Shown here: piece by piece, positions 1,854 through 23,888 of the stretch | Numbering within the stretch: the first letter of the stretch is position 1 | How the letters are laid out: each line of letters begins with the position of its first letter | Source: Candidatus Micrarchaeia archaeon | GTDB taxonomy: Archaea > Micrarchaeota > Micrarchaeia > Anstonellales > J096 | DNA length: 29,882 nucleotides | Assembly (NCBI GenBank): GCA_041500865.1 | Contig: JBGQMY010000016.1 | Span: 1 to 29,882, forward strand | Direction: 5' to 3' | Translations under genes and position numbers: made by a program | Notes under the pieces: generated by a model | What the model saw: the letters and a program-made list of their open reading frames with translations, nothing else | Databases searched by the model: none | What the model was told of the DNA's origin: nothing

Positions 1854-1874
1854 GATATGCTTTTGCGATGCGCC

Positions 1875-1884
1875 ATTTAAATAT
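1875..1884 (-). promoter_or_regulatory. Putative TATA box for dcd-apgM
   Basis: ATATTTAAAT on the minus strand 22-31 nt upstream of ATG 1853; suggests a leaderless transcript. Confidence 0.5.
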
Positions 1885-2091
1885 TTGCTTATGAAGGACA
1901 AAATGCCTTCTTTTTGCAAATAGATAGACTACATGTAGAAATAGTGCTATAATGCATTAAAACTGCACTTTTATGTATATTTGATGCCAATATTGTATAT
2001 AAAATAAATGGACACACATAGAAGGATATCGTGGCCATGGCCGAGGTTCCTGCCTGCTTCCTCTCGGGATGGGTTTCCTTGCCCGAGCCAG

Positions 2092-3465
2092 CTAAAAATC
2101 ATCCAAATCATAAACCAGGTATCCGTTTGCCCTCAGCTTTTGTTTGTCCCTGATTTTCTTTGCCACAATGCCAAATTGCAGGCCTTTGGGCAACCGTAAG
2201 ACATGTTTTACCTTGCCCTGCAATCCATCCAGTATGCCAATCGCTTCTGGATAAGTGAGCTCGCCCCATTTAAATTCAAAGGCATATGCTGATTTTTCGT
2301 TTTTTGCCATCAAATCAATCTCGTATGCATTCTCCCCTTTTTTTGCCTGGGAAATCTTCCCCCACTGGCGTTGCGCTTCGCTTAATCCTAACTCCAGCGC
2401 CAAGAATTCCTTTGCAACCTGCTCAAAACGCCTGCCGTAAAGCGTATTCAGGTTCTTCTTTACGCTTGATATGAATTCCGGCCTTCTGGCCGCGTAGTCT
2501 GAAAAGTTTTTGTATACCTGGGAAAACCAAAACTCAATAAGGGGGTGCCGTATGCAGTAAATCCCCCTTTTTCCCTGGTATGGCATTTCAAGTTCTATCA
2601 GTTCGAAATGATCCCTGAGCTCATTGATTTGGCGGGTTATGGAAGTTGCCGGGGTATTCAAATAGCCTGCAATGGAGGATAACGTATTGTTTCCGGTCGC
2701 TATGGCTTCCAAAATTGAGTAATAGACCCCGCTTCTGCCTCCGAACTCCTGGGAGAGGATGCTGTTTACCTCATCTTCCAAAGGGGCATCTTTAGCCAGA
2801 AACAGGGTGTCAATCATCTCTTCCGCGGTTTTTCCCTGCAAGTTAAAGTCCTCCAGGGCAACATAGTATCTTGGATAACCGCCGAACAGCATATACGCCT
2901 TTATCAGATTTTCTTTGGTTAGCCCCAATTCTTCCCCAATCTCAAGGCATGAAGCCAATGTCAATGGCTCCAGTTTTTTGCCCTTCTTTATCCTGCCGTA
3001 AAGCGGCTCTTTCGAGTTTTTGAACAATTTTTTTATCAAGCCAATCAGCGAGCCAGAAAGAATTATCAAACCAGGCCTGTTTTCGTTCAGGTCAATGCTT
3101 TTTTGCAAAATCCCAAAAACAGCCGGTTCAACAGAAGTGAAATTCTGGAATTCGTCAAAAACCATTGGCGGCGTTTCCCTTGTTATGAGCGTTTCAAAGA
3201 ATTTATCCCAGGAATCCAGCGTTTCCAGCTCCCCGAGCACTTTATTGCCCTTCATTATGCCCTGAAATTCGGCAAGCAGGTCTGCTGAGGTCTTGTTCTT
3301 ATTGACAAAAAAATACAGGCCGCGGTTCTTGAGAAATTCAAGCAACAGCCTTGTTTTGCCTACCCTGCGGAGCCCATAAAGAGCAATGACGAACAGTTTT
3401 TTCTTAGAGAGCGTTTCCAGCTCGTTCAGCTCAGCCAGCTCGGATTTCCTGTTCACGAACTTCAT
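2092..3465 (-). CDS. Archaeal P-loop ATPase (ATPase_2-like) with wHTH/DUF234-like region and C-terminal PD-(D/E)xK-like nuclease fold
   Basis: MKFVNRKSEL start, Walker A GLRRVGKT, Walker B VFDEFQ, SGS, PLYGR, GGYPRY, HPLIEFWF, FE motif, EIDL...FEFKW. ATG 3465 is preferred over TTG 3477 because GGTGA sits 5 nt upstream. Confidence 0.88.
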   Translation of the reverse strand: MKFVNRKSELAELNELETLSKKKLFVIALYGLRRVGKTRLLLEFLKNRGLYFFVNKNKTSADLLAEFQGIMKGNKVLGELETLDSWDKFFETLITRETPPMVFDEFQNFTSVEPAVFGILQKSIDLNENRPGLIILSGSLIGLIKKLFKNSKEPLYGRIKKGKKLEPLTLASCLEIGEELGLTKENLIKAYMLFGGYPRYYVALEDFNLQGKTAEEMIDTLFLAKDAPLEDEVNSILSQEFGGRSGVYYSILEAIATGNNTLSSIAGYLNTPATSITRQINELRDHFELIELEMPYQGKRGIYCIRHPLIEFWFSQVYKNFSDYAARRPEFISSVKKNLNTLYGRRFEQVAKEFLALELGLSEAQRQWGKISQAKKGENAYEIDLMAKNEKSAYAFEFKWGELTYPEAIGILDGLQGKVKHVLRLPKGLQFGIVAKKIRDKQKLRANGYLVYDLDDF

Positions 3466-3496
3466 AATATTCACCAACTGAATTATTCAGTAAGTG

Positions 3497-5641: not shown

Positions 5642-5689
5642 GGCTTGCCTTTGGGCGCAATCATTTAAAAACCCTGCCTCAGTGCGCCG

Positions 5690-8600
5690 TTATCCAAGCC
5701 TGCACACGTAGTCTGTCGCCCCGCCACTTACGAAGGAAAGCATCTCCGCGTTTGTGAGCCCGCTTGCGGTGCAGTTCTGCGCCTGCAACTGGTCCCATGC
5801 CACAGGTATGCCGTATCCGGGGTTTGACATATATGACATGAAGTACGTGCTGTTTTCAACTGAGGAGTTGCATATCTTCCAGTTGGAGTACCTGTTTACA
5901 GAGCTTATCAAGTTCCTGTACTTGTCGGGGTCTGCGAATACCTGGGCTATGTCTTCTACTGAAGGGTTGCTCAGGGCATACGTTATCTTTATTGCGCCAG
6001 TCCCGTTGTAGCAGGTTATATTCATGTATGTGCCATCACTCCGCTTTGTTTTGATGTCGTCCAGGGTGATGCAGGCGCTGTCCGCTATGCAGGGCAAGGT
6101 GCTGTTGAGGCATGTCGATTCGTCGTATACAGGGGTCGGCTTCGGCACAGGGAAGTTGATTTTCTTTGATATGGCTTTTCCAAGCTCCGACAGCGCGCTG
6201 AACGTGGAAGTAGGCGCCCCGGACGCGTTGAATGGATAGAGCAGGTTGCCGTAATCCGTTTGGTCGGTCGTATACGCATTGACATCGTCTATCGTAGCTT
6301 TCTTCCAGTCCTCGAACTGTATCGCGACAATGCCCGCGTTTGTCATCCTTTCCATGTTGAGGCCGAGCACCTCCATGAACTTCGTGGGGTCGAAGCCCGG
6401 GGCGTTCTTCAGGTCCCTTATGTACAGGACTATCGGCTTTCCGTAGGTGTACGTCTCGCCTGACGAATAATTGACGATTGCGTCAGCCATCGCGGTGTAC
6501 CATGCCTCGTAATTGGCAGCGCCGTATCCTGCCGTTGTGGGAGTGGGGTCTATCTCAAGGTTTAGGACAAGCATGTCCGTGGAATTGAACAGGCCGTTGC
6601 ATGCCTCAGCCCCATCCACATAGAAAGTCCTTATGTCGCTATCCCTCGTGCATACCCCGGCGTTTATGCCCGCGTTGTTTGCCGTGTTGTCAGCCCTTAT
6701 CTCCGCTTCCAGCTGTGCCAGCGCCGCATCTGACTGGTATGCCGGCTTGTAATATGCTATGAAGTCGGCAGGGTAAAGCGTGGCGTCGCAGTTGACCTGC
6801 ATGGCTCCCCACCGCTCAACCCTGGTGCTGCCTCCGCTGGGGACGCAGCTGTTGCACCCCGTCTCAGGCATCGGCGCCCAGCTGCACGTCCCTGCAGTGC
6901 GGAATGACGGCACGTTTACGCAGTTCGGCTTTGCTGTGCAGGTTTCCCCTATTGTCGCAACCGGGTCGGCGGCGCATGTAGGGGCGGAACAGCTCATCTC
7001 ATTGTGCGGAAGCTGGAGGTTCATTCCGGCAAGGGACACGCTCGTCCAATCAGTATAGGATGTACTGGAGCCGGAAGTGTAGCAATCGCACGTAACATCA
7101 TGCACCGTTACCCCGGCGGCTTTGAGCTCCGCCGGGCATGTCACGTCGCCCCACCCGGCCACATGGTGGGTGGTGTCGCAGCCCTGGTCATTGAGAATGC
7201 CGTGCCACCCGTTATACGGCCGGGAAAGCTGTACAGTGTAGAAAACCGTAAGGTCAGGCACGAAGTCAAAATATTCCAATGCATTGACAGATGAAATGGA
7301 GCAATAGTCCTTCCCTGCGGCAGAATCCTTTATCGTGCTGCATGCCTCCTGCTGCTCCCTTGCGGTCGTGTAGCTGCCTGTCCCGGATACAGTTATTATG
7401 GTGTTGTTCGGGCTGGGCAGTGTATATGGGCCGCCGGCTGTAGTGTAGTACGTCTTTGACACAGTGCTTTTCAGCCCCTCCCCGTACCTCTTTGTGCTGG
7501 TCTCCAATGCCCTGTATCCCGCCCCGCAGTTGGCTGTAAGCGCTGCTATGTTTCCTGGCCCGAATGCTGCGCCGCTCTGGCATATCGTCCCAGGGCTTGG
7601 GCCAGGCCTCTGCGCAGGCAGCAGCCCGTACTTGCTGTATATGTCAGTGAGGTTTACCTGCACTACGTTCCTCTTGAACGTCATCTGGAGCATGTCCCCT
7701 TCGTCGTTCCCCTGGGTTTCAACAACGAAGCCGGAGCCGGTGTCCCTGAGGTTTCCCGCTATCTCTATTGCGGTCCTGCAGCCGGGGCACATGTCCTTGA
7801 CCTGCTTGTTCCTTTTTGCAAGGTCTTCGGTCGTTGCGTAATACGTGCTGTTGTATCTTCCCTCATCCTTGTAGTAATGGCAGTAGTCCAGGCCTGGTTC
7901 CGCGGTGCTGAACTTTATTTCCGTGCATTCCTGCTTGACCGGAGTGGCCCTTCCAGTGACGACTATGGCGCTGCCGACAGGGACGAACGTTTGCGCATTG
8001 CTCTTGTTGTATATGTCGTTCAGGAGCTTGCTCACGAACGGGGGCGACGAGTCGTTCTTGCAGTATGCGCCGGCGCTGTCGCTCCCGCAGTAGTTGTACA
8101 AGTCCGGATGCTCGGCAAAGAGCATGACCGATATCCCGCTCTGCAGGTAGCTCCTTGTCTTGTTCCTCAGGTAGTCAAGGGGCGGCCAGAAGTTCGCGGA
8201 TGCGCTCTTCGGGTCCCCGTTGACGTTCGGCAATATGGAGAACGGCACCCTGCTGCCTTTCGGGTCCGTCGCGTATGCGGCGAGGACAGTGGTTGGCCCG
8301 GGCTGGGGAACCGGATTGTAATAATAGTCATATGTTCCGTAGCACTTCACGCTGCTGTTTGAAAGCAGGTAGCAGGTGTAGTAATAGCTTGTGTAAACGG
8401 CTACGGCATCGCCGCCCGCGTAGCCGCTTGGCCCCCCATAGTCTTCATAGCCGGTGTAGCCGTAGCATTGGGAGTTGCCGTTGCTGAGAAGGTAGCAGAC
8501 CTTGTTTTCGCTTACGGAAACCGCTATTGCGGCATTTCCGGTGTTTGTATAGTTCCAGCTGTTGCCGTGGCTGCCATAGCACTTCCCGTTGCCGTCCGAG

Positions 8601-11600
8601 AGCACATAGCACGTGTCATCGGTGCCTGCGGAGACTGCTATGGCATTCCCGCCCGCGTATGATGCTGTTGCGGCTCCAGAGCCGTAGCATTTGGAGTTGC
8701 CATCCGCCAGGAGGTAGCAGGCGTCATTGGAATTTATGGACACTGCTATTGCATTCTGCCCGGTGTTTGTATAGTTCCAGCTGTTGCCGTGGCTGCCATA
8801 GCACTTCCCGTTGCCGTCCGAGAGCACATAGCACGTGTCATCGGTGCCTGCGGATACAGCCACTGCATTGCCGCCTATGTAGCTGGTTGATTCGCTTGGG
8901 CTGTAGTAGTGGCTGCCATAGCATGTGGAGTTGCCGTTTGACAGCAGGTAGCAGGTGTGGGCCGGGGATTCCTCCTGGCTGACCGCAACCGCTATTGCGT
9001 TGCCGCCTTCATACGGGGTTCCCTCGTCGCCGGTCATGTAGGAGTAACCGCCGTCGGAGCAAACGGACGTCCCGTTGCCGAAAAGATAGCATATATAGTC
9101 ATTGCCTGCGCCGATGCCAACGACGCCGCCCCTTTTACCGACCACGGAAATTACGTTGGTTGACTGCGATGCAGGTATGTACCCGAGGTTGGCGGTGTCA
9201 TTAGGGAAATACAGGTTGTCCGGCGCTATCACCTGCACCGCAAGGTTCACGTATGACGGGTTTTCGCACATGCCGTACTGCCTTACGTCCGGGGTTGCGC
9301 CGTTCGAGGCCGTGCAGTTGCCGTATTTCTTGTCAGGGCCGGGATTGAGGAGCACCATGGTAAGGGCCTCTTTTGCGCACTTGCCGTTGGCGCCAGTTTC
9401 AAGGCAGAAGTCGCCCTGGGTGAGGTTCTCGCACACGCCCTTTGTCCCGCTTATCTGTATCTGGTATGTGCTATATGACGGGTCCGAATTGGCGTAAACC
9501 GTCCCGCTGTTCATGAAGGCATAGGTTTCAGGCCAGGTGCATGTTGCACTGGTCAGCCTGGATGAGGCTATGGTCGGCGTCTTGGAGTCTGCCATCCCTG
9601 TTCCCTCGGCTATCGTAAGCCCCGATATGCTCTGCACGAGCCTGCAGCCGTATATCCTGCCGGCATGGTCGCCGTTTGCCCCTTCAAATGCCTTCATTAT
9701 GTTTCCGCCGCTGTTCAGCACCGCGGGGTTGACGCAAACGTAGTGCTCGTCGTTTTCGTCCATTCCGCACGACTTCACAATCGGGAGGTTGCGGAACAGC
9801 GAGCTGTCATAATAATAGTTTTGCAAATCCTGTATCAGCCTGTCGCCGAGCTCAATATATTGGTATTGCACGCTGTAGTCGCGGTCATCGTCTTTGCAAC
9901 CCCTGCCGCCAAGGTCGAACATATAACCGAATAGCTGGCTGCTTGCGCCATCGCTTGCCGTTGCCCAGTTGCTGTCATAGTACCAGCTGACGCCAGGGGC
10001 GATATTCCTGTTTGTATATGCCGGCTTCGTGCAGCCGTCGTAAAAAAAGAACATCGGCCTGTCGCACGCGTTCGGTTTTTTGCCTCCGTCCGCCCAGTAT
10101 ATCATTGTCCACCAGTAGCATCCGACCCCAGGCGTCTCGCTGTAGGTATCAGTCTCCACGTTGAGGCTGCTGCATACTGATGCGTTGTCCACAAGCGTCG
10201 GGTAAAACCCGAAGTCCAGCGGTATCGCCATGTACTGCTTGTCGGAACTCATTACCGTCTTTGTGAGCGATTCCGACTTGGCGGAGTTGTTTTCCGAGAT
10301 TGGTATGGGATAGTTTGACCCGCGTCCGAAGCCGGCATGCATGCCGCTTGCCGAACAGTTGTCTGCCTCATAGTATGCAAGCTTAGTCTTTGAGAAATTC
10401 GCCCCGGTCTGGGAGCCCTGGTAGCACCCCAAGCCGTCGCATCCGCACTTTACGTCGGCATTTGCGTCTGCAGTGCCGATGCATCCCGTCCTGTAATGGG
10501 TGTCAAAGCCGCATATGCCGCTCTTGCAGTCCTGCTTGGAGCACTCAAACGGGAGGCCCGGCTTCTCCTTTCCGTCAACAAGCGAAAATGAATAGTTGTA
10601 CGTTGAGCTGTCGTACCTTGACATCATGTCGCTGTATCCGCCCTTCATGTCGGCAACCTGGTAATAGACGTTGGCCAGGCTGTTGAGCTGGGGGAGCGAC
10701 CTTGTGGCGTTGCTGAACGAAAGGTTGTCTGTCGTTATGGTGAATGAATCGCCGAAGGAGCCGAACTCGTCAAGCAGGTATCCGGAGACGTTTTTCCTCA
10801 CCACCGGCTGCCACGCCGCCGTGCTGCCTATATAATTGCCAATCTGGCTTAGGCTCGGCACCCTCCTTGAGCTGGGCGGATTGAGCGAGGACGCGTTCTG
10901 CACATAGAACGACTCAACAAAGGCGTCCTTGCCTGCAGGCCTGTTCCTCATTATCATGCTTAGCGCCTCAATGCCGCTGGGCCTGAGGCTTTCGCTGTTG
11001 CCCGCGCAGTTGAGCAGGCAGGACTCGAAAGTCGGGAAAACCTTGCCGTATGCATTGGCGCTGGATGCGTTGTTGCATTTATACCCGTAATCGGCCTTGT
11101 CCATCACGCAGTTCCTTATCGCGTCTTTCGGGTAATAGTAAAGCGCGAAGCTTTCCACCCCGCTTTGCGAGACCTCGCCTATCTCCTCTGTGCTGAATGG
11201 CAGCAGGACCTGCGCCTCGTCGAATTCGGCAAACGTATTTCCGACGCCGAAGCGGAATATGTCCATTGCCGCCTTTCCCTTCAGGTCGTTGGCCACCCTG
11301 TCGTCTATCATCTGGTAGGAGCCTTCGGAATACAGCAGGTTCTGCCTTGCTACGCTGAGGCTGTTGTCATTGGTATGGTTTGATATCTGCGTGGCATTGT
11401 CCCAGTAAATCAGCTTCAGCTGGTGTATGTCGCCGGGCGAAAGCCCGGGGTTCTCGTTGACGCTTATGGCCCTGAAGACGCCGGTCGTGCAGTTCTCCAT
11501 GCACACGCTTTTCGCGAAGGTCGGGCAGAGGTTTATCGTCTTGTTCTCCATAAGCTCGGTCTTTGTCGGGTTGGTGGCGTTTGCCTTGTCCAGGTTTATG

Positions 11601-11905
11601 TTGGTGCATGTGCCGCCGTCTATGCTGCACGCCTCCTTGGAGTTCTCCGGGCTTGCCCTTGTGTAGTTGGTTCCCGGGTCCAGCTGCACCAGGTTGGTGC
11701 ATTTGCCCCCTTCTGCCGCAATCGCGCCGCAGCACGGCAGTTTGCCGATTCCAAAGCCCATGTCAGAGCTTGCGCAGCTGCTGACCTCCTTTGTCACGTT
11801 TTCCAGGGGGGAATTGGAGCCTTCTGTGCCATAAATGGAGGTGCATCCGGAAAACAGCATGAGCGAAACCGCAATCGCAAAAAGAACTATCCTTGTGTTT
11901 GTCAT
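5690..11905 (-). CDS. Giant Cys-rich exported putative lipoprotein (2071 aa) with an inserted 7-blade RCC1-like propeller and possible interrupted TIM-barrel
   Basis: Signal peptide with lipobox-like LFSG-C (Cys21); many Cys and N-x-S/T sequons; seven A(I/V)AVS....CY(L/V)LSxGNxxCYG repeats at ~8330-9125. Starts 1 bp after the stop of the upstream gene. Confidence 0.9.
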   Translation of the reverse strand: MTNTRIVLFAIAVSLMLFSGCTSIYGTEGSNSPLENVTKEVSSCASSDMGFGIGKLPCCGAIAAEGGKCTNLVQLDPGTNYTRASPENSKEACSIDGGTCTNINLDKANATNPTKTELMENKTINLCPTFAKSVCMENCTTGVFRAISVNENPGLSPGDIHQLKLIYWDNATQISNHTNDNSLSVARQNLLYSEGSYQMIDDRVANDLKGKAAMDIFRFGVGNTFAEFDEAQVLLPFSTEEIGEVSQSGVESFALYYYPKDAIRNCVMDKADYGYKCNNASSANAYGKVFPTFESCLLNCAGNSESLRPSGIEALSMIMRNRPAGKDAFVESFYVQNASSLNPPSSRRVPSLSQIGNYIGSTAAWQPVVRKNVSGYLLDEFGSFGDSFTITTDNLSFSNATRSLPQLNSLANVYYQVADMKGGYSDMMSRYDSSTYNYSFSLVDGKEKPGLPFECSKQDCKSGICGFDTHYRTGCIGTADANADVKCGCDGLGCYQGSQTGANFSKTKLAYYEADNCSASGMHAGFGRGSNYPIPISENNSAKSESLTKTVMSSDKQYMAIPLDFGFYPTLVDNASVCSSLNVETDTYSETPGVGCYWWTMIYWADGGKKPNACDRPMFFFYDGCTKPAYTNRNIAPGVSWYYDSNWATASDGASSQLFGYMFDLGGRGCKDDDRDYSVQYQYIELGDRLIQDLQNYYYDSSLFRNLPIVKSCGMDENDEHYVCVNPAVLNSGGNIMKAFEGANGDHAGRIYGCRLVQSISGLTIAEGTGMADSKTPTIASSRLTSATCTWPETYAFMNSGTVYANSDPSYSTYQIQISGTKGVCENLTQGDFCLETGANGKCAKEALTMVLLNPGPDKKYGNCTASNGATPDVRQYGMCENPSYVNLAVQVIAPDNLYFPNDTANLGYIPASQSTNVISVVGKRGGVVGIGAGNDYICYLFGNGTSVCSDGGYSYMTGDEGTPYEGGNAIAVAVSQEESPAHTCYLLSNGNSTCYGSHYYSPSESTSYIGGNAVAVSAGTDDTCYVLSDGNGKCYGSHGNSWNYTNTGQNAIAVSINSNDACYLLADGNSKCYGSGAATASYAGGNAIAVSAGTDDTCYVLSDGNGKCYGSHGNSWNYTNTGNAAIAVSVSENKVCYLLSNGNSQCYGYTGYEDYGGPSGYAGGDAVAVYTSYYYTCYLLSNSSVKCYGTYDYYYNPVPQPGPTTVLAAYATDPKGSRVPFSILPNVNGDPKSASANFWPPLDYLRNKTRSYLQSGISVMLFAEHPDLYNYCGSDSAGAYCKNDSSPPFVSKLLNDIYNKSNAQTFVPVGSAIVVTGRATPVKQECTEIKFSTAEPGLDYCHYYKDEGRYNSTYYATTEDLAKRNKQVKDMCPGCRTAIEIAGNLRDTGSGFVVETQGNDEGDMLQMTFKRNVVQVNLTDIYSKYGLLPAQRPGPSPGTICQSGAAFGPGNIAALTANCGAGYRALETSTKRYGEGLKSTVSKTYYTTAGGPYTLPSPNNTIITVSGTGSYTTAREQQEACSTIKDSAAGKDYCSISSVNALEYFDFVPDLTVFYTVQLSRPYNGWHGILNDQGCDTTHHVAGWGDVTCPAELKAAGVTVHDVTCDCYTSGSSTSYTDWTSVSLAGMNLQLPHNEMSCSAPTCAADPVATIGETCTAKPNCVNVPSFRTAGTCSWAPMPETGCNSCVPSGGSTRVERWGAMQVNCDATLYPADFIAYYKPAYQSDAALAQLEAEIRADNTANNAGINAGVCTRDSDIRTFYVDGAEACNGLFNSTDMLVLNLEIDPTPTTAGYGAANYEAWYTAMADAIVNYSSGETYTYGKPIVLYIRDLKNAPGFDPTKFMEVLGLNMERMTNAGIVAIQFEDWKKATIDDVNAYTTDQTDYGNLLYPFNASGAPTSTFSALSELGKAISKKINFPVPKPTPVYDESTCLNSTLPCIADSACITLDDIKTKRSDGTYMNITCYNGTGAIKITYALSNPSVEDIAQVFADPDKYRNLISSVNRYSNWKICNSSVENSTYFMSYMSNPGYGIPVAWDQLQAQNCTASGLTNAEMLSFVSGGATDYVCRLG
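8538..8854. repeat. 95-bp perfect direct repeat (8538-8632 and 8760-8854), blades 5 and 3 of the propeller
   Basis: Identical DNA, offset 222 bp, encoding SAGTDDTCYVLSDGNGKCYGSHGNSWNYTNTG. Confidence 0.95.
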
Positions 11906-11906
11906 T

Positions 11907-12890
11907 TCACATCAGCCTCATGAGCCTGCTCTCGAACTCGTTCGTAAGCATGCCTGAGCCCATTATCAGCGTTCCGTGGTACAGGAACATGAGCGTTGCG
12001 GCGAGCGCTATGCTGTGCGACAGGAACAGGCCAAGGTACACGGAGTTCACGAAATTCGCTATGCTTGATGAATAGTCAATGCTCTGCGGGCCCATCATGG
12101 CGCTCATGCTCGCTATGTCGCTTCCGGATATGACGATGGGGTTGGACAGCGTTATGACGTTGTATCCGCATCCGTTGAGCTGTATCTTCTGGGTTGATAT
12201 GTCCGGGGCGCTGAAATCGTTGAACAGCGCATAGAACACTATGGGGTAAACGTAGTATGCGGCAACGGCAAGCACTATCAGGAATCCGCCGAAGCCCTTG
12301 CTCCACTTGAAGGCCCTGAAGAAAAAGCCGGCTGCAAGCGCCAGCGGCGCTATGTTCTGCATCATGCCGATTACGCCTATGCTCGCGTCTGTCCAGAACT
12401 TCAGCTGTATGGACGTGCGCGCGACATATTCCCATTTGGACATGTCCATGAAGAAGGCCTTGTCTATGCCGCCGAACCACCTTAGGAGGGGCATGCCTAT
12501 GAACGTAATGGACGACTTGTCTATAAGCTCCGTGGTCTTCTTGTCCAGGTTGTCCAGCGCAGTCCTCTCCGCGCCGTCAAGCTGCGTGTATGCGTCGTTC
12601 AGGTTGCCTATCGCGTAATCCTGTATCTGGCCGTAGCTGCCTATGCTGAACCCAGACGTTATGAAGTTGACGCCGGCGCTCTCTATGACGCCTATGAACA
12701 TGACCATGAAGAATATGACAGCAAGGTCCAGCAGCTCCGCAGTGGCCTCGGTCTTTATCTTCTCTTCCTGCAGGAAGCGGCCTATCATGAACTTTATTAC
12801 GCATATGAATATGCCGGCCATTATGCCCCATATGATTATGCACAGCCAATGTATCCCCAGCAGGCCGAAAAGCCCTTCCGAAAGCCCCAT
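11907..12890 (-). CDS. CedA/VirB6-like multi-pass membrane protein, paralog 6 of 6
   Basis: 327 aa; KFMIGRFLQEEKIKTEATAELLDL and GFFFRAFKWSKGFGGFLIVLAVAAYYVYP motifs shared with its neighbours. Family label is inference. Confidence 0.75.
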   Translation of the reverse strand: MGLSEGLFGLLGIHWLCIIIWGIMAGIFICVIKFMIGRFLQEEKIKTEATAELLDLAVIFFMVMFIGVIESAGVNFITSGFSIGSYGQIQDYAIGNLNDAYTQLDGAERTALDNLDKKTTELIDKSSITFIGMPLLRWFGGIDKAFFMDMSKWEYVARTSIQLKFWTDASIGVIGMMQNIAPLALAAGFFFRAFKWSKGFGGFLIVLAVAAYYVYPIVFYALFNDFSAPDISTQKIQLNGCGYNVITLSNPIVISGSDIASMSAMMGPQSIDYSSSIANFVNSVYLGLFLSHSIALAATLMFLYHGTLIMGSGMLTNEFESRLMRLM

Positions 12891-14030
12891 TCATATCACC
12901 TTGATGAACATCTCCATAAGGGATTCCTCCTCGTCCATGAGGGTCGAGATTGCCTTGCTTCCGGCCGCTATCGATATTGAGTTTATTGAAAGTATGAACG
13001 CCGAGATGAAGAATGAGTTGTACATGTCCTCCAAAAGCCCGTATACGTCAACCAGCACCGATGGGTTTCCATGGGGGCAAAGGACTCCGGCGCACACCAC
13101 CCTTAGGCCCTTCCCGCCAGTGTCCATCTTCCAGTCTATCAGCGGAACAGATCCGCCGAGCAGGCCATTGAGGAGCGATTGGGATATTATCTCCCCGAAG
13201 TTGTTGCTGAACGTCATGCTTTTCGCGTCGTCCTTGAAATCAGTGGAGTCATACACGGTGTCGGGAAGGGGGACCTTGAACACCATGCCTTCCACGGTCA
13301 GCATCAGCGGGAATATCAGCATGAACGATATCAGCACGGCTATCACGCTGTTCGCGAAGTACTTGAATACGGGCAGCGGCCTCAATATGACCGCGAACGC
13401 CAGCAGAGAGAACATTATGGGGCTCAGCACCATCTCAACCAGGAACATCTGCGCCGTGTCAGCTGTAAGCGCGGACATCACCGCCAGGCTCATCACGGAG
13501 CCGAGCATGCCTTTCGCCTTGACTATGGAGGGATATATCGGCTGCTGCGCAAGGGTGGACGTGTAGTATCCGAACCCCTGCGTGAGGGTCGGCTCGGTAT
13601 TTGTCGCGCTTATCAGGTTCTCCATGTTGCCGTTCGCCCATATGGAGAGCTTTGCGACGTTGATTGTGTAGTCCGTCGCTGCCGCAAGGTACGACATCGC
13701 GTTTCCGTATACGCATGCGCCTCCGTTGAAATACGGCGTCTCGGAGCTGCTGGCGCTGACATTGGCCATGGAAGGCACCCAAAGGGTTCCGACCGTGTTG
13801 GAGCCGAATGCGGAATACAGGGCAAGGATGGCGCCGGCTATCAGGAACGTGACCACTATGTCGTACATCATGTTGCCGCTCCAGAGCTCCATCCTCCTGT
13901 TGCCTGTAATCTGGCCCGCCATCCTCACTATGACGGAAAGCATGAGCACCGCGACGCAGGACACTGCGAGCGTTGTCAGGCTGAGCGCATTGGACGCAAG
14001 GCCGCACATCCCGAAATCAACGTACGACAT
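12891..14030 (-). CDS. CedA/VirB6-like multi-pass membrane protein, paralog 5 of 6
   Basis: 379 aa; RMAGQITGNRRMELWSGNMMYDI and AVILRPLPVFKYFANSVIAVLISFMLIFP. Confidence 0.75.
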   Translation of the reverse strand: MSYVDFGMCGLASNALSLTTLAVSCVAVLMLSVIVRMAGQITGNRRMELWSGNMMYDIVVTFLIAGAILALYSAFGSNTVGTLWVPSMANVSASSSETPYFNGGACVYGNAMSYLAAATDYTINVAKLSIWANGNMENLISATNTEPTLTQGFGYYTSTLAQQPIYPSIVKAKGMLGSVMSLAVMSALTADTAQMFLVEMVLSPIMFSLLAFAVILRPLPVFKYFANSVIAVLISFMLIFPLMLTVEGMVFKVPLPDTVYDSTDFKDDAKSMTFSNNFGEIISQSLLNGLLGGSVPLIDWKMDTGGKGLRVVCAGVLCPHGNPSVLVDVYGLLEDMYNSFFISAFILSINSISIAAGSKAISTLMDEEESLMEMFIKVI

Positions 14031-14031
14031 T

Positions 14032-15183
14032 TCAGACCGCCCCTATCCTTGTTATCTGCCCTATCACGAACGGGCTTATGTCGGTTCCCATGACCTTTGC
14101 TATGCCCCCTGTCAGGGAGACCACCATGAGCAGGCAGAAGCCCTGCGAAAGCAGCATTGCGAACATGAGCGAGCCGGCGGTTGGCACGTTGCTGCCTGCC
14201 GTCAGCGTGACGCCGGCATCAAGTTGGCTCGCATACGCGTCCATGTCGCCCTGCAGGTCCGGCTTGGGGTTCTCGTTGCAGTACGTGGTGATGGTCCTTT
14301 CCAATGGATTGCTGTACGGTGAGAAGTGCGCGACACTGTTTATGTTTGCGTTGATGGAATCGACGCCAGTCGTGGTCAGTATGTTAAGCCCCATCGCGCT
14401 GAAATACTCTATCGTATATCCCTCCATGAGTATCAGGAAAATGGGGTATACGAAAAGGGCTATGCTGAAGCCTATGAAGAACGCGCCTATGCCCCTTACC
14501 ATGTTGAATGACCTCAGTATTATCCCTATCATGAAGAACGGTATATAGAGGTCATGGGCATATTTGACAAGCATCTTTTGCGCGAACATGATGGTTATGC
14601 TCCTTGACACGAACGACGCAATCTCGTTGACCAATGACGCAATCATCGCCACCGGCTTGCACAGATACGTTACAAGCGTGCCCGACCCGCCGCTTGTGCC
14701 CGCATCCCCCTTGTCCGACTTTCCGGAGTCGGCTGACGTGGAGTAGGCCGAGCTGCCCAGCGGGCTTGAGCCCTCTATGCCCCTGCTTATGAATGCCATG
14801 CTTGCTGTTGCCGCGTTTCCTGCAAGCGTGGACTCGTTTATGAACATCGTCGTGTATCCGCTTACTATGCTGTCCTGCAGGCTGATGGACTTATTGAAGA
14901 AGAAATCGTCGGACGCAGGCTTGTCGCTCCCCACGTAGGTCGCGCTGTTGGGCACGAAGCTCTGCACCACGTAAAACCCTAGCGTCTGCGCCATGTTGAA
15001 CGCTATGAACGCGAGAAGCATCACCATGAACCCGCCTATTAAAACTTCTTGCATCTCGGCCTTCGCGACAGCGAGCAGCTTCTCGTTCGCCAGCGCCTGC
15101 CCTATCATGTACACGATGGCGTAGAACACGCCCATCACGGTCACGACGACTGCGAATCCGGTATAGTCGGACGGTGCAAGCAT
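14032..15183 (-). CDS. CedA/VirB6-like multi-pass membrane protein, paralog 4 of 6
   Basis: 383 aa; YMIGQALANEKLLAVAKAEMQEV and GIILRSFNMVRGIGAFFIGFSIALFVYP. Confidence 0.75.
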   Translation of the reverse strand: MLAPSDYTGFAVVVTVMGVFYAIVYMIGQALANEKLLAVAKAEMQEVLIGGFMVMLLAFIAFNMAQTLGFYVVQSFVPNSATYVGSDKPASDDFFFNKSISLQDSIVSGYTTMFINESTLAGNAATASMAFISRGIEGSSPLGSSAYSTSADSGKSDKGDAGTSGGSGTLVTYLCKPVAMIASLVNEIASFVSRSITIMFAQKMLVKYAHDLYIPFFMIGIILRSFNMVRGIGAFFIGFSIALFVYPIFLILMEGYTIEYFSAMGLNILTTTGVDSINANINSVAHFSPYSNPLERTITTYCNENPKPDLQGDMDAYASQLDAGVTLTAGSNVPTAGSLMFAMLLSQGFCLLMVVSLTGGIAKVMGTDISPFVIGQITRIGAV

Positions 15184-17075
15184 CAGCGCCTCAGCCTCTC
15201 AATCCCGGGTATGAACATCTCGCCCTCCAGCCCCATAGATATGGCGACTGCGGCGGCAATGGTTATCGCTATCGAGAAAATGCCCAGCATTATGGAATAT
15301 GCCATGAACTTGCCTTCGCTCGTCTTTGCGCCTGCCTTGCTGGTTTCCCCGCTGAAGCAGCCGCTGCAATCCGTATATGCAGGAACGCTCTTTATATCCT
15401 GCGGAATCTTCATGATTTTCAGGCAGTCGGGATTGTCCACCTGGTATATGGGCAGCGAGACCTTCTTTGCCTCTGTTGTTATGGCTGCCGTGCTGATTGG
15501 GTTGGAGGCGAGCGCAGTCTTTATGTTGTTGTATGCGGCGCTTGCCGCTGTTTTGGCGTCAGCCAGCGTTGTCGTTCCCGTGGCTTCCTCATATACCGCT
15601 GTGCAATTGTAATAGTTGGGGTCGGTTGCCGCGCACCCCGTGCGCCCGTCCGCATAGAAGAGCCTGCACGAGCTTGGGCAGTAGTACATCGGGTTGGCCT
15701 TTGGGGTTATCGCCAGCGGCGTCACGCGGAAGCAGCTGCTCTTTGACAGCGCAAGGCTGAGGCTCATCGGCTTGCCGTCATAGACAACCGGGTAGTTGAG
15801 GTTGGCATAATCAAAGTTGTCCCTGAAGCATGCGCCCTTGGGCGTTGATGCAGCGTAAAGCGCGGCGCACGGCAGTTCCGCGTCCCTGCATTCCACGACG
15901 TCATAAGGATAGGGGATGCTCCTGCAGCTGCTCGGGCAGTCTGTTGTTATGTTTTGTGCAACGACGGCCGCACTGATGCTTATGGGGGCGGCCGCGTATG
16001 CGCTCGCCGTGCTGGTGTTTATGGCGACGTTTTGGTATTCGCATGAGTGGACTATGCCCACCCCTTTCACGTCAAGCGTATTGTTGTCCCCAGTCACTAT
16101 CCCCCTCACGTCCGACCAGTTCAGCTTCGTGTCTGCCTGCGCCGCGTCCAAATAGTCGGTCAGGTCTATGCCCCCGGAGGAGTTCCATGCGATGACTGTC
16201 TTCATGCACGCGTCTGGGCACCCAGCCGGCTTCATGTACTGGACGCCGGGGATGCTTACCGCGCCGTTTGCCACCAATATCGCGATTATCGTCAATGGAA
16301 GCACGATAGAGCAGCTTATGCCTATCGCAAGCATGGTTGAGCCGAGCCTCCTTGTCACGGAAAACGACTTGAGCATTATGCCGAACACTATCAGCATGGG
16401 CCCTATGTAATACGCGAAATAGAGCAGGAAAACCTTGACTATGATGAGGGACATGGCAGCTCCCCTGTACAGCCCTATCTCCTCGTCGAACTCAATGGTC
16501 TTCACCTTGTTCAGGCCCTGCATGTCGTACGTGTAGCCCACGCTTAGGCCGAAATAGCCTATGCTGCCGCCGATGTTGGAGCTGCCGTCAAAGCCCGACA
16601 CCTTGCTCAGCGCGCTCTTCTCCAGCGCGGACATCTCGTCCTTTGCGCCGGAAAGCAGGCCGTCCATGTATTTCACGGACGTGTTGACTATGCAGTTTTC
16701 CGGGTGGTCGCACAGCAGCGGGGCAGCCAGCATGTTGTCCAGGAACAGGGAGAACGCGCCGAACAGCAGTATCAGTATTATGTTGAAGAACGCCTCCCTG
16801 GTCTCCAGCTTGAAGGCGCTTTCAAGGTACGTTATCTGGAACGTCCTCGCGACCATGTATATGAGCCCGTTTATCAGTATGGATATCACGACCAGGACGA
16901 GCGAGACCTTCACCCAGTTGTAATCCAATCCGTTGCCCTGGAAAAGGTTCGCCACCTTTGCCGCGAACGTGGTGCTGCTGCTCAGGCTCGTGACGCCCTG
17001 GCTTATGTTGAGCGTGTCTGCGCAAACCAGCGCAGCCATCAGCGCAAGCGCAACCCAGACTACCATCATCCTCAT
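15183..17075 (-). CDS. CedA/VirB6-like multi-pass membrane protein with a large Cys-rich external insertion, paralog 3 of 6
   Basis: 630 aa; signal-like N-terminus; YMVARTFQITYLESAFKLETREA and GIMLKSFSVTRRLGSTMLAIGISCSIVLP; ~300-aa loop with CPDAC and two CPSSCR motifs. Confidence 0.75.
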   Translation of the reverse strand: MRMMVVWVALALMAALVCADTLNISQGVTSLSSSTTFAAKVANLFQGNGLDYNWVKVSLVLVVISILINGLIYMVARTFQITYLESAFKLETREAFFNIILILLFGAFSLFLDNMLAAPLLCDHPENCIVNTSVKYMDGLLSGAKDEMSALEKSALSKVSGFDGSSNIGGSIGYFGLSVGYTYDMQGLNKVKTIEFDEEIGLYRGAAMSLIIVKVFLLYFAYYIGPMLIVFGIMLKSFSVTRRLGSTMLAIGISCSIVLPLTIIAILVANGAVSIPGVQYMKPAGCPDACMKTVIAWNSSGGIDLTDYLDAAQADTKLNWSDVRGIVTGDNNTLDVKGVGIVHSCEYQNVAINTSTASAYAAAPISISAAVVAQNITTDCPSSCRSIPYPYDVVECRDAELPCAALYAASTPKGACFRDNFDYANLNYPVVYDGKPMSLSLALSKSSCFRVTPLAITPKANPMYYCPSSCRLFYADGRTGCAATDPNYYNCTAVYEEATGTTTLADAKTAASAAYNNIKTALASNPISTAAITTEAKKVSLPIYQVDNPDCLKIMKIPQDIKSVPAYTDCSGCFSGETSKAGAKTSEGKFMAYSIMLGIFSIAITIAAAVAISMGLEGEMFIPGIERLRR

Positions 17076-18154
17076 TCTACCATCTCAAAGACCTTCCTGA
17101 AGTTGTTCAGTATGGAGAGGCTCAGGCCGAGTATCACGGAAGAGACGAAGCTGCCCAGCACGGCGTACTTGCCCAGCTTCATTATCCCGGTCATTCCGCT
17201 GCAGCCGCCGAACGGCTGGAAGTCGGCGCCAGCCCCCAGGCCCGTGCATATCTTGCTTACGTCAACGCTCTGCGCCGATGCCAGGAAAACGGCATAAAGG
17301 AACGGGTAAATTATGTATGCGACGAGCGACACCAGTATCAGCAGGTCGCCTGCCTTCCTCGTCCATGGCGACATCCTTAGTATTATGCCGCCGAAGAAAA
17401 GGTATATGATGGCGTTGTCTATGAAAAACTTCCCGAGCAGTATCATGAACACCATGAGGTTGAACAGGGGGGCCATCAGCGAAGAGACCTCCATCTCCAG
17501 AACGTCCGCGAAAACGCCCTTGTACGCCTCCTGCCTTATGTTCAGCGTCTGGAACGAGAAGGCGCACTGTATCATCGAGTCAAGGAACGCTCCGGGACCG
17601 AACACCGCGAGGGGGATGTATCCCCAGCTAAAGGCCCCGCAGTACAATAAGGCAGGCAGTGTGGTGTACAGCGTCGGGAGCGTCGTGGGGACCGCAGCAT
17701 CCGCCCTGTCCTCCACTATCGTGCCGTACGCAGCCGACATCGTGTTTTCCGCGTCAAGCCTGAAGTCGTCGAATACCTTGCTGTTGTAGTCTGTTATGCT
17801 GGTCACGGACTGGCCGGTTGCTTTATTGAACTGTGCCAGGAACAGCTGGTTGACCGTTATGAAGAACACGTAAGTAAGCATGATGACAGCAACCGACACC
17901 AGCATCTGCCCGAACTCGTTCCTGGCGTTCATCAGCTCCTTGTCGTTTTGGGTGAAGTATCCGTACATGCTGTAGATGGCCAGTATCATTATGTTGAGCG
18001 CAAACAGTATGTATATGATGTTGCTGGCCGGGTCCTCGCCCTCTATTATGCTGCTTATGGCGTCTATCTTCGTTTCGTTCAGCGCCTGGGCTGACGAGAC
18101 CGCCGACAGCGCGAGCAGCAAGAGCGCGAACCTAGATATATTCCGTGAGTCCAT
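17072..18154 (-). CDS. CedA/VirB6-like multi-pass membrane protein, paralog 2 of 6
   Basis: 360 aa; signal-like N-terminus; SMYGYFTQNDKELMNARNEFGQM and GIILRMSPWTRKAGDLLILVSLVAYIIYP. Confidence 0.75.
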   Translation of the reverse strand: MDSRNISRFALLLLALSAVSSAQALNETKIDAISSIIEGEDPASNIIYILFALNIMILAIYSMYGYFTQNDKELMNARNEFGQMLVSVAVIMLTYVFFITVNQLFLAQFNKATGQSVTSITDYNSKVFDDFRLDAENTMSAAYGTIVEDRADAAVPTTLPTLYTTLPALLYCGAFSWGYIPLAVFGPGAFLDSMIQCAFSFQTLNIRQEAYKGVFADVLEMEVSSLMAPLFNLMVFMILLGKFFIDNAIIYLFFGGIILRMSPWTRKAGDLLILVSLVAYIIYPFLYAVFLASAQSVDVSKICTGLGAGADFQPFGGCSGMTGIMKLGKYAVLGSFVSSVILGLSLSILNNFRKVFEMVE

Positions 18155-19463
18155 AGAGGAAAAACTCGCCTCCCAGCAGTACGGCCAGGGCCCTTATGCC
18201 GCCCACGACCGTCAGCGCCACGCTTGCCATGAGCAGGACGTGCGTCATGTTGATTATGGTCCCGAATATGGCAGCGTCGTATTCAAGGTTTATGGCGGCG
18301 TCCATCCCGCCTCCGCTGAGGAAATAATTGTCAATGGTGGCTACGAATATCTGGTGGCCTGCGAATATGACGGTCGTCGCCACATAGCTTATTATCATGT
18401 TGGCTATCAGGAACACCACCTTCAGTATGCCCCCCATCGCCTGGCCTATGCCGAAAACCGCAACAAGCACCGCGGCTACATCCGCGCCGGCGCCCTTGAC
18501 TGCGGTATTGGAGAATTCAAGTATGTCGCCGACTACAGTGTATGATATCGCGAAGCTGCGCAGCATTGCCGCATCTGTCGACAGGGTGCCGGCCAGTGCG
18601 CTCTGCTCAGGGTTGAACCCGTTCCCGAACATGGTGTTGACGGCCGCCTGCTGTATGCCGAACATTATGCTGCCCATGAAGAACAGCGAGGCAGGGTATA
18701 TCAGGACGAGCGCTATGCCTATCGCGACGAGCGTGGAGCCGGCCCTCCTCACGTACGGTATCGCCCTCAGGAAAAACCCGAAAGGCAAGAGCAGCTGGCA
18801 CGATGCCAGCACAAAATACCTCATGAGGTTTGCCATCATCGCCTGCTGGCCGCATATGGACACTATCGTGATTGTCGCCTGGTCCAGCGCATCCCCCAGC
18901 CGCTCCAGTATCGGCAGCGTTGCCGTCCTCCCAAAATTTGTCGTGATCTTTATGCCCCAGGGAAGGTCTATGTATCCGGATATTGAGGACGAGCTTCCCT
19001 GCAGCTGCAGCGCGTCAGAATATACGCCCACCATCTGCCTTGCCTCTGGCATCAGGTAGTCTATGTTCCCCTTGTACATGCTTGTTGTGGCGTTGACCAT
19101 GTCGCCGTTCGGGTCCAGCGCAAGCACCTGGAAGAACTTGTCTATGGAAACTATCGCGCCGATGACGAACGCGAAGATGAAGACGTTGATTATTGTCGCC
19201 CTTATCTCGTTTATGGCCCCGGCCTTGTTCTTTTCGTCGTTCATCACCGTTGAGACATAATACGAAAGGACCGCTATCGCGGCCCCGATGGCCGTCCCCA
19301 GCCCCACAACAATGCCCATGCTTGTCAAGCTGCAGGCAAGGTCGCTGCTTATTGTCCAGGCTTGGCCTGCGGTTGGCGCAGGGCAAGCATTGGCCGGTCC
19401 TGCGGCAAATGGGCATGCAACCAAAAGCAGTATGGCTAGCACTGGAAACCTGATTGCGCCCAT
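18132..19463 (-). CDS. CedA/VirB6-like multi-pass membrane protein, paralog 1 of 6 (first gene of the operon)
   Basis: 443 aa; signal-like N-terminus; YYVSTVMNDEKNKAGAINEIRAT, GFFLRAIPYVRRAGSTLVAIGIALVLIYP and C-terminal IRALAVLLGGE. Confidence 0.78.
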   Translation of the reverse strand: MGAIRFPVLAILLLVACPFAAGPANACPAPTAGQAWTISSDLACSLTSMGIVVGLGTAIGAAIAVLSYYVSTVMNDEKNKAGAINEIRATIINVFIFAFVIGAIVSIDKFFQVLALDPNGDMVNATTSMYKGNIDYLMPEARQMVGVYSDALQLQGSSSSISGYIDLPWGIKITTNFGRTATLPILERLGDALDQATITIVSICGQQAMMANLMRYFVLASCQLLLPFGFFLRAIPYVRRAGSTLVAIGIALVLIYPASLFFMGSIMFGIQQAAVNTMFGNGFNPEQSALAGTLSTDAAMLRSFAISYTVVGDILEFSNTAVKGAGADVAAVLVAVFGIGQAMGGILKVVFLIANMIISYVATTVIFAGHQIFVATIDNYFLSGGGMDAAINLEYDAAIFGTIINMTHVLLMASVALTVVGGIRALAVLLGGEFFLYGLTEYI

Positions 19464-19486: not shown

Positions 19487-19500
19487 TTTTTATACCTTTG
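19487..19500 (-). promoter_or_regulatory. Putative BRE/TATA promoter of the seven-gene operon
   Basis: Minus strand CAAAGGTATAAAAA ~24-37 nt upstream of ATG 19463. Confidence 0.55.
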
Positions 19501-23625: not shown

Positions 23626-23849
23626 GGTTTCACCTTTAAATTTATGACTGATATATATTATCCTCCTCTTGTTTATAAATGTTTCCATAATCTCTTGCTA
23701 TAACCAACAGTTATAATTAGTGTTCCTTTTTGAATGTTTCTATTTTGCGCCGGTTTTTTCTCTACGCGTTCGGCAAACCGCGCAGCTTTGCGAAGCCGGC
23801 CGTGCCAAGGTCCGGATTCCGGTCTTCTTTGCCCGTCATTTATGTTAGC

Positions 23850-23857
23850 TTTTTAAA
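23850..23857 (+). promoter_or_regulatory. Putative TATA box of the giant surface protein gene
   Basis: TTTTTAAA ~32-39 nt upstream of ATG 23889. Confidence 0.5.
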
Positions 23858-23888
23858 CAAGACGCAACAAAAACCAATTGGATTGCCC

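Follow-up and report, generated by a model that had tools for sequence, protein, structure and literature searches.

What does an archaeon of the class Micrarchaeia build with six consecutive membrane-protein genes that run, with hardly a gap, into a gene for a secreted protein of 2071 residues? The seven genes lie on the minus strand between positions 5690 and 19463 of the 29,882-bp stretch of DNA analysed here (the window), which is the whole of contig C16 in a 1.04-Mb genome of 36 contigs that is 92% complete. A first-pass annotation of the window had described the six as paralogous, VirB6-like membrane proteins and the giant as a lipoprotein, assigned the organism to the DPANN archaea, and proposed that the operon encodes an apparatus for contact or transfer between cells. 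A parts list of this kind bears on the question of how DPANN archaea attach to their hosts and draw material from them. We find that the feature is real and conserved; judged by sequence comparison and genomic context it is best read as a variant of a Ced/Ted/type IV secretion system (T4SS)-like machine, with the VirB6 homology of its core unproven by sequence, and the operon is a candidate means by which the organism links up with other cells.

Strand, coordinates, lengths and junctions of the seven genes are exactly as first described. Reading along the minus strand, and numbering the membrane proteins by their position in the array, p1 (18132-19463, 443 aa) is signal-like at its N-terminus and contains the conserved loop motif, cytoplasmic in location, that is discussed below; p2 (17072-18154, 360 aa) overlaps it by 23 nt; p3 (15183-17075, 630 aa) contains a predicted extracellular insert of ~310 aa between its fourth and its last transmembrane segment (TM); and p4 (14032-15183, 383 aa), p5 (12891-14030, 379 aa, the most diverged of the six) and p6 (11907-12890, 327 aa, the smallest) complete the array, bringing the summed length of the membrane proteins to 2522 aa. 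The giant secreted protein (5690-11905, 2071 aa) is the seventh gene of what we call a type B cluster. Computed from the coordinates, the junctions from p1 through to the giant are -23, -4, -1, +1, 0 and +1 bp.

Similarity between the six proteins is faint when they are compared in pairs: the best phmmer E-values, in a database made of the six sequences, range from 1e-6 to 1e-4, and blastp matches among them are short and centred on one motif. An open reading frame (ORF) search of this genome with the six window proteins revealed that contig C1 bears another array of six such genes (6767-14363, minus strand). Out of 1.84 billion cluster representatives, a profile built from the six window proteins and their six C1 paralogs (A1) picks up 2941 at E ≤ 1e-3; the number falls to 2099 at E ≤ 1e-10 and to 24 at E ≤ 1e-30. 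The paralogy claimed at the outset is thereby borne out: at the profile level, p1 to p6 are clearly members of one polytopic membrane family, which is unnamed. None of the six has a meaningful match in Pfam or NCBIfam at E ≤ 1, such stray matches as occur being sub-threshold and unrelated. When 49 of the 150 listed representatives were scanned, 48 had no Pfam family and one had a CARDB domain, and the 7 database homologs retrieved with A1 all lack a name or bear the label 'hypothetical protein', none of them having a precomputed Pfam assignment.

Hydropathy yields a common layout for the six proteins that agrees with the architecture proposed in the first-pass annotation: a TM1-TM2 pair, a soluble domain, TM3 and TM4 joined by a loop, a variable region and a last TM. 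The motif GxxLRxxxxxRxxGxxLIx(10)P is present in the window proteins as originally written. Across an alignment of 84 sequences, the TM3-TM4 loop has the consensus 'LP.G..LR.F..TR..GG.LIA.AI..Y..YP', in which, in p1 numbering, R233 and P257 never vary and conservation reaches 90% or more at G229, R239 and G242; p5 departs from the motif at these three near-invariant positions, where it has A, K and A. The N-terminal amphipathic segment described after TM1 ('YM.G...N......AK.E', with 'AWAK.E' in the 84-sequence alignment) is real as well, its E86 being at least 90% conserved, and a C-terminal tail that had gone unmentioned, 'LGG[DE]..I.GL.RLI', is likewise conserved.

Long members of the family have 600-1200 aa inserted precisely between their core and the final TM; 28 of the 150 listed representatives exceed 900 aa, and at both ends the long proteins retain what the family shares, the core at the N-terminus and the TM with its tail at the C-terminus. 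Protein p3 is a small version of these insert-bearing members, and position-3 orthologs in relatives also have inserts, with total lengths of 574-1143 aa. Of the 20 Cys residues and 8 N-x-S/T sequons of p3, 16 and 6, respectively, fall within the insert (residues 280-590), a concentration which argues that the variable region faces the outside of the cell and that the Arg-rich loop and the tail face the inside.

The family was found in 97 of 121 sampled genomes, all of the class Micrarchaeia (one of them, G086, flagged as unpublished). Counted as family matches, which are not exact copy numbers and for which at most 14 candidates per genome were scored, there are ten or more in 50 genomes, six to nine in 41 and fewer in 6. 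No member was found in the 6 genomes of taxonomic family f7 or the 5 of f15, and only 2 of the 10 genomes of f12 have the family. We examined 20 clusters from 14 genomes, and in each of them a six-frame search identified six family ORFs, no more and no fewer, arranged in tandem on a single strand; the cluster is conserved in relatives of the present genome. A first, greedy ORF calling had recovered all six in 14 clusters but four or five in the other 6, the missing members being overlapped ORFs that it had dropped. In a FastTree tree of these 120 proteins over 298 profile-aligned columns, 119 have as their nearest neighbour in another cluster a protein at the same position, and none has its overall nearest neighbour within its own cluster. 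For all six window proteins, the nearest neighbour is the same position in another giant-bearing cluster. This pattern implies that the array consists of six ancient subunit types kept in order, and on the evidence of the tree p1 to p6 are fixed and non-interchangeable representatives of them.

Two kinds of array can be distinguished. Type A (canonical) arrays, including the one on C1 of this genome, have no giant gene after them, whereas type B arrays have large inserts at position 3 (sometimes 4) and a Cys-rich giant directly after position 6. Type B was seen in 8 genomes from four taxonomic families: the window (giant of 2071 aa), G056 (1230 aa), G135 (1239 aa) and G130 (2047 aa) in f1, G050 (1356 aa) and G026 (1366 aa) in f2, G097 (1442 aa) in f6 and G009 (2791 aa) in f8. 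The two types correspond position by position in the tree, the nearest type A protein occupying the same position for 42 of 48 type B proteins and the nearest type B protein doing so for 42 of 42 type A proteins, which indicates that one type arose through duplication of the whole array. Judged by these relationships, type B is an old, faster-evolving duplicate of the canonical six-gene array. The membrane proteins, like the giant, diverge rapidly: their positional orthologs are 19-27% identical between genomes of the same family, and those at type A position 3 are 29-31% identical.

The giant of the window has a single N-terminal hydrophobic segment ending in a lipobox-like LFSGC, and contains 81 Cys residues and 40 sequons. 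Its designation as a lipoprotein is supported by sequence, since in all 8 type B giants the h-region ends in the G-C of a lipobox; we describe it as a Cys-rich lipoprotein, probably glycosylated and with predicted lipid attachment. It has no Pfam (E ≤ 1) or NCBIfam family, and of its 7 positional counterparts 6 have no Pfam family and the seventh, the 2791-aa giant of G009, has only cupredoxin-like and Cys-rich fragments; an ESM Atlas search with its C-terminal 871 aa gave no usable match. Most type B giants are colinear weak homologs of one another. Those of G056 and G097 are 25% identical over 1094 aa (E 6.5e-53), and the window giant is 25% identical to that of G135 over 287 aa (E 3e-17) and also matches those of G056 and G097, in several colinear segments; among other giants at E ≤ 1e-3, that of G130 gives short matches only and that of G009 none. 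Such comparisons indicate that the giant evolves fast, and it has any match in only 4 of the 41 genomes of its order.

Within the giant, a region of RCC1-like repeats could be read from the sequence at 8321-9148 (minus strand, approximately residues 920-1195), with six to seven 'C-Y-L-L-S-x-G-N-x-K-C-Y-G' blades. Over residues 954-1194 the protein shares 43-56% identity with ORFs on contigs C12, C24 and C2 and with the section of a second giant in the window that is annotated as RCC1_2. This second giant (23730-29882, plus strand), a secreted protein of more than 2051 aa whose frame is open at the contig end, has Pfam matches to RCC1_2 (ten copies, E 2.5e-56), Big_13 and fn3/purple-acid-phosphatase-N, and its block is 50-56% identical to the repeats of the 2071-aa giant; further copies of the block occur on C12, on C24 and in a 4417-aa ORF on C2. 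The block is lineage-specific and appears to move among giant genes. Inside it, at 8455-8985, contigs from four metagenome runs are joined in many alternative ways (with skips of 125-487 nt, and with back-joins), a pattern that fits either variation in repeat number or cross-assembly with other giants.

If the array were part of a transfer apparatus, one would look for the other components of such machines, and the first-pass annotation had reported that neither an ATPase nor a pilin gene accompanies it. This is true of the window, but both are encoded elsewhere in the genome, on C1, C6, C29 and C15, although their scores against the known families are sub-threshold. The ATPase (C1:83633-85216, 527 aa) is of the FtsK/HerA/VirB4 type, with Pfam matches to DUF87, AAA_10 and the TraG P-loop. 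Its best NCBIfam matches are CedB (E 7.6e-20), VirB4_plasma (2.9e-18), the VirB4-like CD1110 (3.3e-18) and CedD (1.1e-17), with HerA (1.4e-13) behind; the N-domain of VirB4 was not found in it. It lies in a module (C1:79969-86062) that encodes, besides the ATPase, a 278-aa protein with two TMs, a 156-aa membrane protein, a 232-aa coiled-coil protein and an 829-aa bitopic protein.

Linkage of the membrane array to this ATPase is direct in three genomes of taxonomic family f11 (G111, G030 and G006), where the two adjoin. In G111, three pilin-like genes (115-122 aa) are followed by p1 to p6, two 274-aa proteins with two TMs, the ATPase, and genes of 99, 297 and 793 aa, and homologs of all of these parts are present in this genome, on C1 (79969-86062), C6, C29 and C15. 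The two families also co-occur. An ATPase match at E ≤ 1e-10 is found in 97 of the 97 genomes that have the membrane family, mostly at E ≤ 1e-100 (in the 73%-complete G119, only at 8e-16), while of the 24 genomes lacking the family 22 have no ATPase match and 2 have weak ones only (2.3e-13 and 5.2e-17). The 80 ATPase-ortholog loci come nearly all from metagenome-assembled genomes of Micrarchaeota, in line with the original placement of the organism among the DPANN archaea. The ATPase is 65% identical in G056, compared with 19-27% for the positional orthologs of the membrane proteins. Many genomes have 2-5 ATPase matches and this one has a single match; the C-terminal ~100 aa of the protein form the separate 99-aa gene in family f11, and in some genomes the ATPase lies within ORFs of 1000-1180 aa. 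A mini locus in another genome (G093:C20:7614-14002) combines one family gene (358 aa) with a 268-aa protein with two TMs, a 497-aa paralog of the ATPase that is 47% identical to it, and further genes, of 97, 252 and 610 aa.

Five pilin-like candidates were identified in this genome (C6:6883-7242, C6:6537-6872, C29:6460-6804, C29:5974-6171 and C15:1-282). By sequence, proteins of this kind combine a signal peptide with a pair of hydrophobic helices; in Pfam, 8 of 10 match T4SS_pilin (PF18895; best E 2.4e-4) and 3 of 10 match TrbC/VirB2 (PF04956; best E 1e-4). Alignment with the VirB2-type TrwL of plasmid R388 by hhalign gives E 1.3e-3 and a probability of 18%, and TrwL is also the top, non-significant, profile match in the Protein Data Bank (PDB; E 0.17). 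In the pilin-like family one Cys, early in the mature part, is conserved and another, at the C-terminus, is invariant; purely as an idea, an N-to-C disulfide between the two might imitate the way in which TrbC/VirB2 pilins are cyclised head to tail. It is worth noting two assignments that we tried and rejected. The ~275-aa protein with two TMs is not supported as an analog of VirB3 or of the VirB4 N-domain, its hhalign probability against R388 VirB4 being 0.4% and its best PDB profile match being to Ras (E 0.24); and the platform of a type IV pilus (PilC/FlaJ-like) does not suit a system that is linked to an FtsK/HerA/VirB4-type ATPase and whose small proteins have a signal of the signal peptidase I type, not class III, and a two-helix hairpin.

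Structural comparison was made with AlphaFold2 models of p1 (pLDDT 77, pTM 0.67) and p6 (pLDDT 76, pTM 0.71), both of which are bundles of very long helices. For p1, the best of 48,161 chains in VIA-align is TrwI, the VirB6 protein of R388 (7o3v_F; Z 11.0, rmsd 5.6, 237 of 261 residues aligned over model residues 34-426), and DotA (9ngy) ranks fourth (Z 9.4, 251 residues aligned). For p6, 7o3v_F ranks tenth (Z 8.7, rmsd 5.9, 220 of 261 residues aligned over model residues 1-313), and among the 50 best rows it is the sole alignment of at least 150 residues with an rmsd below 6, the next long one covering 149 residues at rmsd 6.9. In Foldseek against the PDB, VirB6 chains take ranks 2, 5, 8, 10, 21, 26 and 31, all at E-values above 1e-3. 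Co-folding of p1 with p2 weakly supports an interaction, with a score of 0.42 against 0.00 for the best of 3 controls, at least 17% of contacts agreeing between runs and a partner pLDDT of at least 58; the runs used our own alignments, so that calibration is approximate. Solved complexes reach the pass mark in 116 of 157 cases and mismatched pairs in 2 of 215, and at scores of 0.60 or below passes comprise only 18 of the 157 solved complexes plus both of the passing mismatches.

From these lines of evidence we lean, with moderate confidence, towards the operon being the membrane and surface part of a chromosomal, conjugation-like minimal machine of the Ced/Ted type, in which p1 to p6 co-assemble and the giant lies on the outer face. 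Ced, in Sulfolobales, and Ted, in Thermoproteales, import DNA by means of a VirB6-like protein (CedA/TedA), a VirB2-like pilin (CedA1/TedC) and a VirB4-like ATPase (CedB/TedB), as set out in the available text of Beltran et al. 2023 (PMC9905601). In the Micrarchaeia, p1 to p6, one copy of each, would co-assemble into a VirB6-like membrane platform or channel. Each subunit would consist of a TM1-TM2 hairpin, an outward helical domain and a TM3-TM4 hairpin carrying the cytoplasmic LR.....R..G loop, completed by an outward variable region and by the last TM with its conserved cytoplasmic tail, and the giant lipoprotein would sit on the outer face of the six-subunit platform. Type A and type B arrays would belong to one system together with VirB2-like pilins and a CedB/VirB4-like ATPase of the hexameric type, which would dock with the six subunits at their conserved cytoplasmic loops and tails and drive pilus assembly, the passage of macromolecules (DNA or protein), or both. 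The hypervariable outer parts, namely the p3 insert and the giant, may contact another cell, and the type B array with its giant could then be an alternative, surface-decorated version of the machine for cell contact.

This model can be extended in a more speculative direction, which we consider doubtful: the six different VirB6-like subunits would form a pseudo-sixfold ring matched 1:1 to the protomers of the ATPase, and the type B array with its giant would provide the combined docking and conduit structure through which a symbiont forms cytoplasmic bridges to its host. Cryo-electron tomography of a Micrarchaeon co-culture has revealed nanotubes between host and symbiont and, within the envelope of the symbiont, a barrel-like platform of 21 nm that is unexplained; the available text of the report names no genes for these structures (PMC11329633); this platform, of Micrarchaeon ARM-1, may be a candidate for such a docking structure.

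Several results weigh against a Ced/Ted-type machine, and most concern the resemblance of p1 to p6 to VirB6. None of the six matches Pfam TrbL/VirB6 (PF04610) at E ≤ 1, profile A1 finds 0 chains among the PDB sequences at E ≤ 10, and NCBIfam, which includes models of CedB and CedD, gives no Ced match for any of them at E ≤ 1. With hhalign, family alignments of 84 sequences (A2) and 86 sequences (A3) reach probabilities of only 0.5% and 0.3% against an alignment of 7 VirB6 sequences of the MPF_T type (R388, NC_028464, and six other plasmids), and A2 reaches 0.06% against TrwI alone. The structural scores are weak as well: the VIA-align Z values of 11.0 and 8.7 lie below the ~13 that helical arrangement alone can produce, that of p6 ties with local helix-hairpin matches and is equalled or exceeded by nine unrelated rows, and Foldseek finds no match for either model at E ≤ 1e-3 in the PDB, with TM-scores of only 0.25-0.38 in its VirB6 rows. 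As for the partners, the NCBIfam scores of the ATPase are 64-71 bits against cut-offs of 325-700, and a PDB sequence search places it equally close to HerA (1e-13, partial) and to the C-terminal domain of VirB4 (2.7e-9, covering residues 61-332); all Pfam matches of the pilin-like proteins are below the gathering scores. This genome, 92% complete, yielded a single ATPase of this kind, no ATPase or pilin gene occurs in the window or beside any of the type B clusters examined, and the link between type B and the ATPase rests on paralogy with type A. Membership of the TrbL/VirB6 family is thus unsupported by sequence; the VirB6-like label of the first-pass annotation draws tentative support from fold, TrwI being the top whole-chain match of p1 and the only one of p6, and further support from genomic context. 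Of these two, context, in the form of linkage to and co-occurrence with the ATPase and pilin-like genes, gives the stronger support; homology to VirB6 is what we infer.

A reader unpersuaded by the fold might instead see in the six-subunit complex a machine for the export or anchoring of giant surface proteins, or an envelope scaffold for them, with no conduit from cell to cell and a VirB6 likeness that amounts to a shared arrangement of long helices. The giant is translationally coupled to p6 across a 1-nt gap and keeps its place in 8 genomes, several other giant secreted proteins of this genome also need export, and the missing sequence link to VirB6 also speaks for such an account, as do structural Z values no higher than helical proteins can attain by chance. 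It is harder to reconcile with the type A array, which has no giant and is linked instead to the CedB/VirB4-like ATPase and VirB2-like pilin genes, and with genomes that have only about six family matches and still keep the system; moreover, the combination of ATPase, pilin and VirB6-like protein is the signature of Ced, Ted and T4SSs in the available text of PMC9905601. We regard this explanation as unlikely. The same three-part make-up, equal to that of the DNA-importing Ced and Ted systems in that text, could also reflect a Ced-like import or exchange of DNA within the species, serving repair or gene flow and involving no host attachment, in which the giant would be a species-recognition adhesin. 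Here the order of the ATPase's matches (CedB, then VirB4-like conjugation ATPases and CedD) is in favour, as is, as a lead only, the Atlas neighbour cluster of p1 (score 0.85), 23% of whose members have a CedA1 domain. All of these ATPase matches are, however, far under the family cut-offs, fast evolution of the outer parts (19-27% identity, against 65% for the ATPase) fits recognition of a host or partner equally well, six paralogs and giant lipoproteins are absent from the descriptions of Ced and Ted in the available literature, and nothing in this analysis bears on the substrate; a role confined to exchange within the species seems to us rather improbable. Least credible is an ordinary solute transporter, or an unrelated membrane enzyme, beside which the giant would be a coincidental neighbour: the weak Foldseek rows to TM domains of ABC transporters and to TTYH channels (E 0.03-0.1) that might suggest it have TM-scores below 0.2 and rmsd values above 20 Å, no transporter family matches p1 to p6, the position of the giant is conserved in 8 genomes, and the array is linked to and co-occurs with an ATPase of the FtsK/HerA/VirB4 type, not of the ABC type.

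Promoter-like and terminator-like signals at its two ends complete the picture of the seven genes as one tight unit, that is, an operon as far as the DNA can tell. A TATA-like box, TATAAAAA (19487-19494, minus strand, read from the sequence), lies ~27 nt upstream of the p1 ATG (19463); this spacing fits a leaderless archaeal transcript, and the box is a putative promoter element. The first-pass annotation had described a single TATA upstream of the operon, and the box is indeed there, but a second TATA-like stretch, ATATAAAAA (19478-19470, minus strand, also read from the sequence), lies between TATAAAAA and the ATG. Beyond the other end, 19 nt past the stop codon of the giant, TTTTTAAAT (5663-5671, minus strand) was read as a terminator-like element with a T5 run. 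The same stretch lies ~26 nt ahead of the ATG (5641) of the next gene, where it is TATA-like and may play a dual role; that gene encodes a 237-aa protein of no family and is probably leaderless. Identical pieces of the operon are found on DNA contigs of three further sediment metagenome runs, and one metagenome run, possibly the source, covers the entire operon.

Flanking the region are an ATPase_2/DUF234 archaeal protein of 461 aa (window 2092-3477, minus strand) and one of 262 aa that has an HTH_17 domain at its C-terminus (window 22900-23688, minus strand), with no operon link seen for either. dCTP-deaminase-like genes occur near both six-gene arrays, at window positions 1338-1919 (minus strand) and at C1:14668-15656, the latter adjoined by a gene for nucleoside diphosphate kinase; their recurrence is possibly a coincidence.

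Whatever the machine does, its components form a widely conserved parts list in most of the sampled Micrarchaeia: the six subunits, a CedB/VirB4-like ATPase, VirB2-like pilins, and accessory proteins of ~275 and ~800 aa, to which many genomes add a second array with a giant, variable lipoprotein. If the Ced/Ted-type reading is true, conjugation-like machines would be extended to a third archaeal group, in parallel with the chromosomal T4SS found in bacteria of the CPR (Candidate Phyla Radiation). The invariant six further raises the idea that a symmetry-matched hetero-hexamer replaces the homo-oligomer of VirB6; were that true, the Micrarchaeia would have a hetero-hexameric T4SS core, a version not described for any conjugation system.

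How, then, does the array compare with systems already known? We found no published description of it in the literature that our full-text searches covered, as judged by titles, abstracts and available text. Among conjugation proteins it is closest to VirB6/TrbL, represented by TrwI of R388 (PDB 7o3v, 8rt9 and 8rtd) and by DotA of the Legionella Dot/Icm system (9ngy); TrwI is the top whole-chain structural match of p1 and the only one of p6. VirB6 and the subunits of the array are both polytopic and helical, with long helices and a large outward domain between TM2 and TM3, and both are associated with a VirB4-type ATPase and VirB2-type pilins, the association here being a genomic one. VirB6 of A. 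tumefaciens has five TMs in an N-out/C-in topology, and that of R388 is a homopentamer with VirB5. The array differs in that p1 to p6 have no sequence or profile similarity to VirB6, in having six fixed paralogs where VirB6 is one gene, and in lacking VirB5, in place of which a giant lipoprotein follows (in type B); the Micrarchaeia system is, in addition, archaeal, chromosomal and present in most genomes of the class.

Chromosomal T4SSs of Patescibacteria (CPR) offer a second comparison, being conjugation-like, widespread in the lineage and found in ultra-small, host-dependent cells, with VirB4, VirB6 and pilins of which the last are detected by the same Pfam models as here (PF18895 and PF04956), according to the available text of PMC12102498. 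They are, by the same account, bacterial and of MPF_FATA descent, their VirB6 can be detected with standard profiles, and that text describes neither sixfold paralogy nor a coupled giant lipoprotein. Nearer in lineage, the SPEARE proteins of Nanohaloarchaeota resemble our system in that a DPANN giant surface protein is tied to a T4SS-type ATPase and proposed to act on host cells, as described in the available text of PMC10266531. There the giant itself has a VirB4/TraG-like ATPase domain and Ig-like repeats, and the text describes no VirB6-like array, whereas the giant of the window operon has no ATPase or any other Pfam domain and follows six membrane genes.

The closest relatives in overall design are Ced and Ted. 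As far as the available descriptions of these systems go, they have the same minimal three-part make-up and are likewise chromosomal and archaeal; CedB is the best, if sub-threshold, NCBIfam match of the ATPase (7.6e-20), and the pilin-like proteins have the signal peptide and two hydrophobic helices of TedC and VirB2. The differences, with CedA and TedA compared by description, lie in what the Micrarchaeia have added: six ordered paralogs in place of a single CedA or TedA, often two such arrays per genome, and, around them, giant lipoproteins, ~275-aa proteins with two TMs and a protein of ~800 aa.

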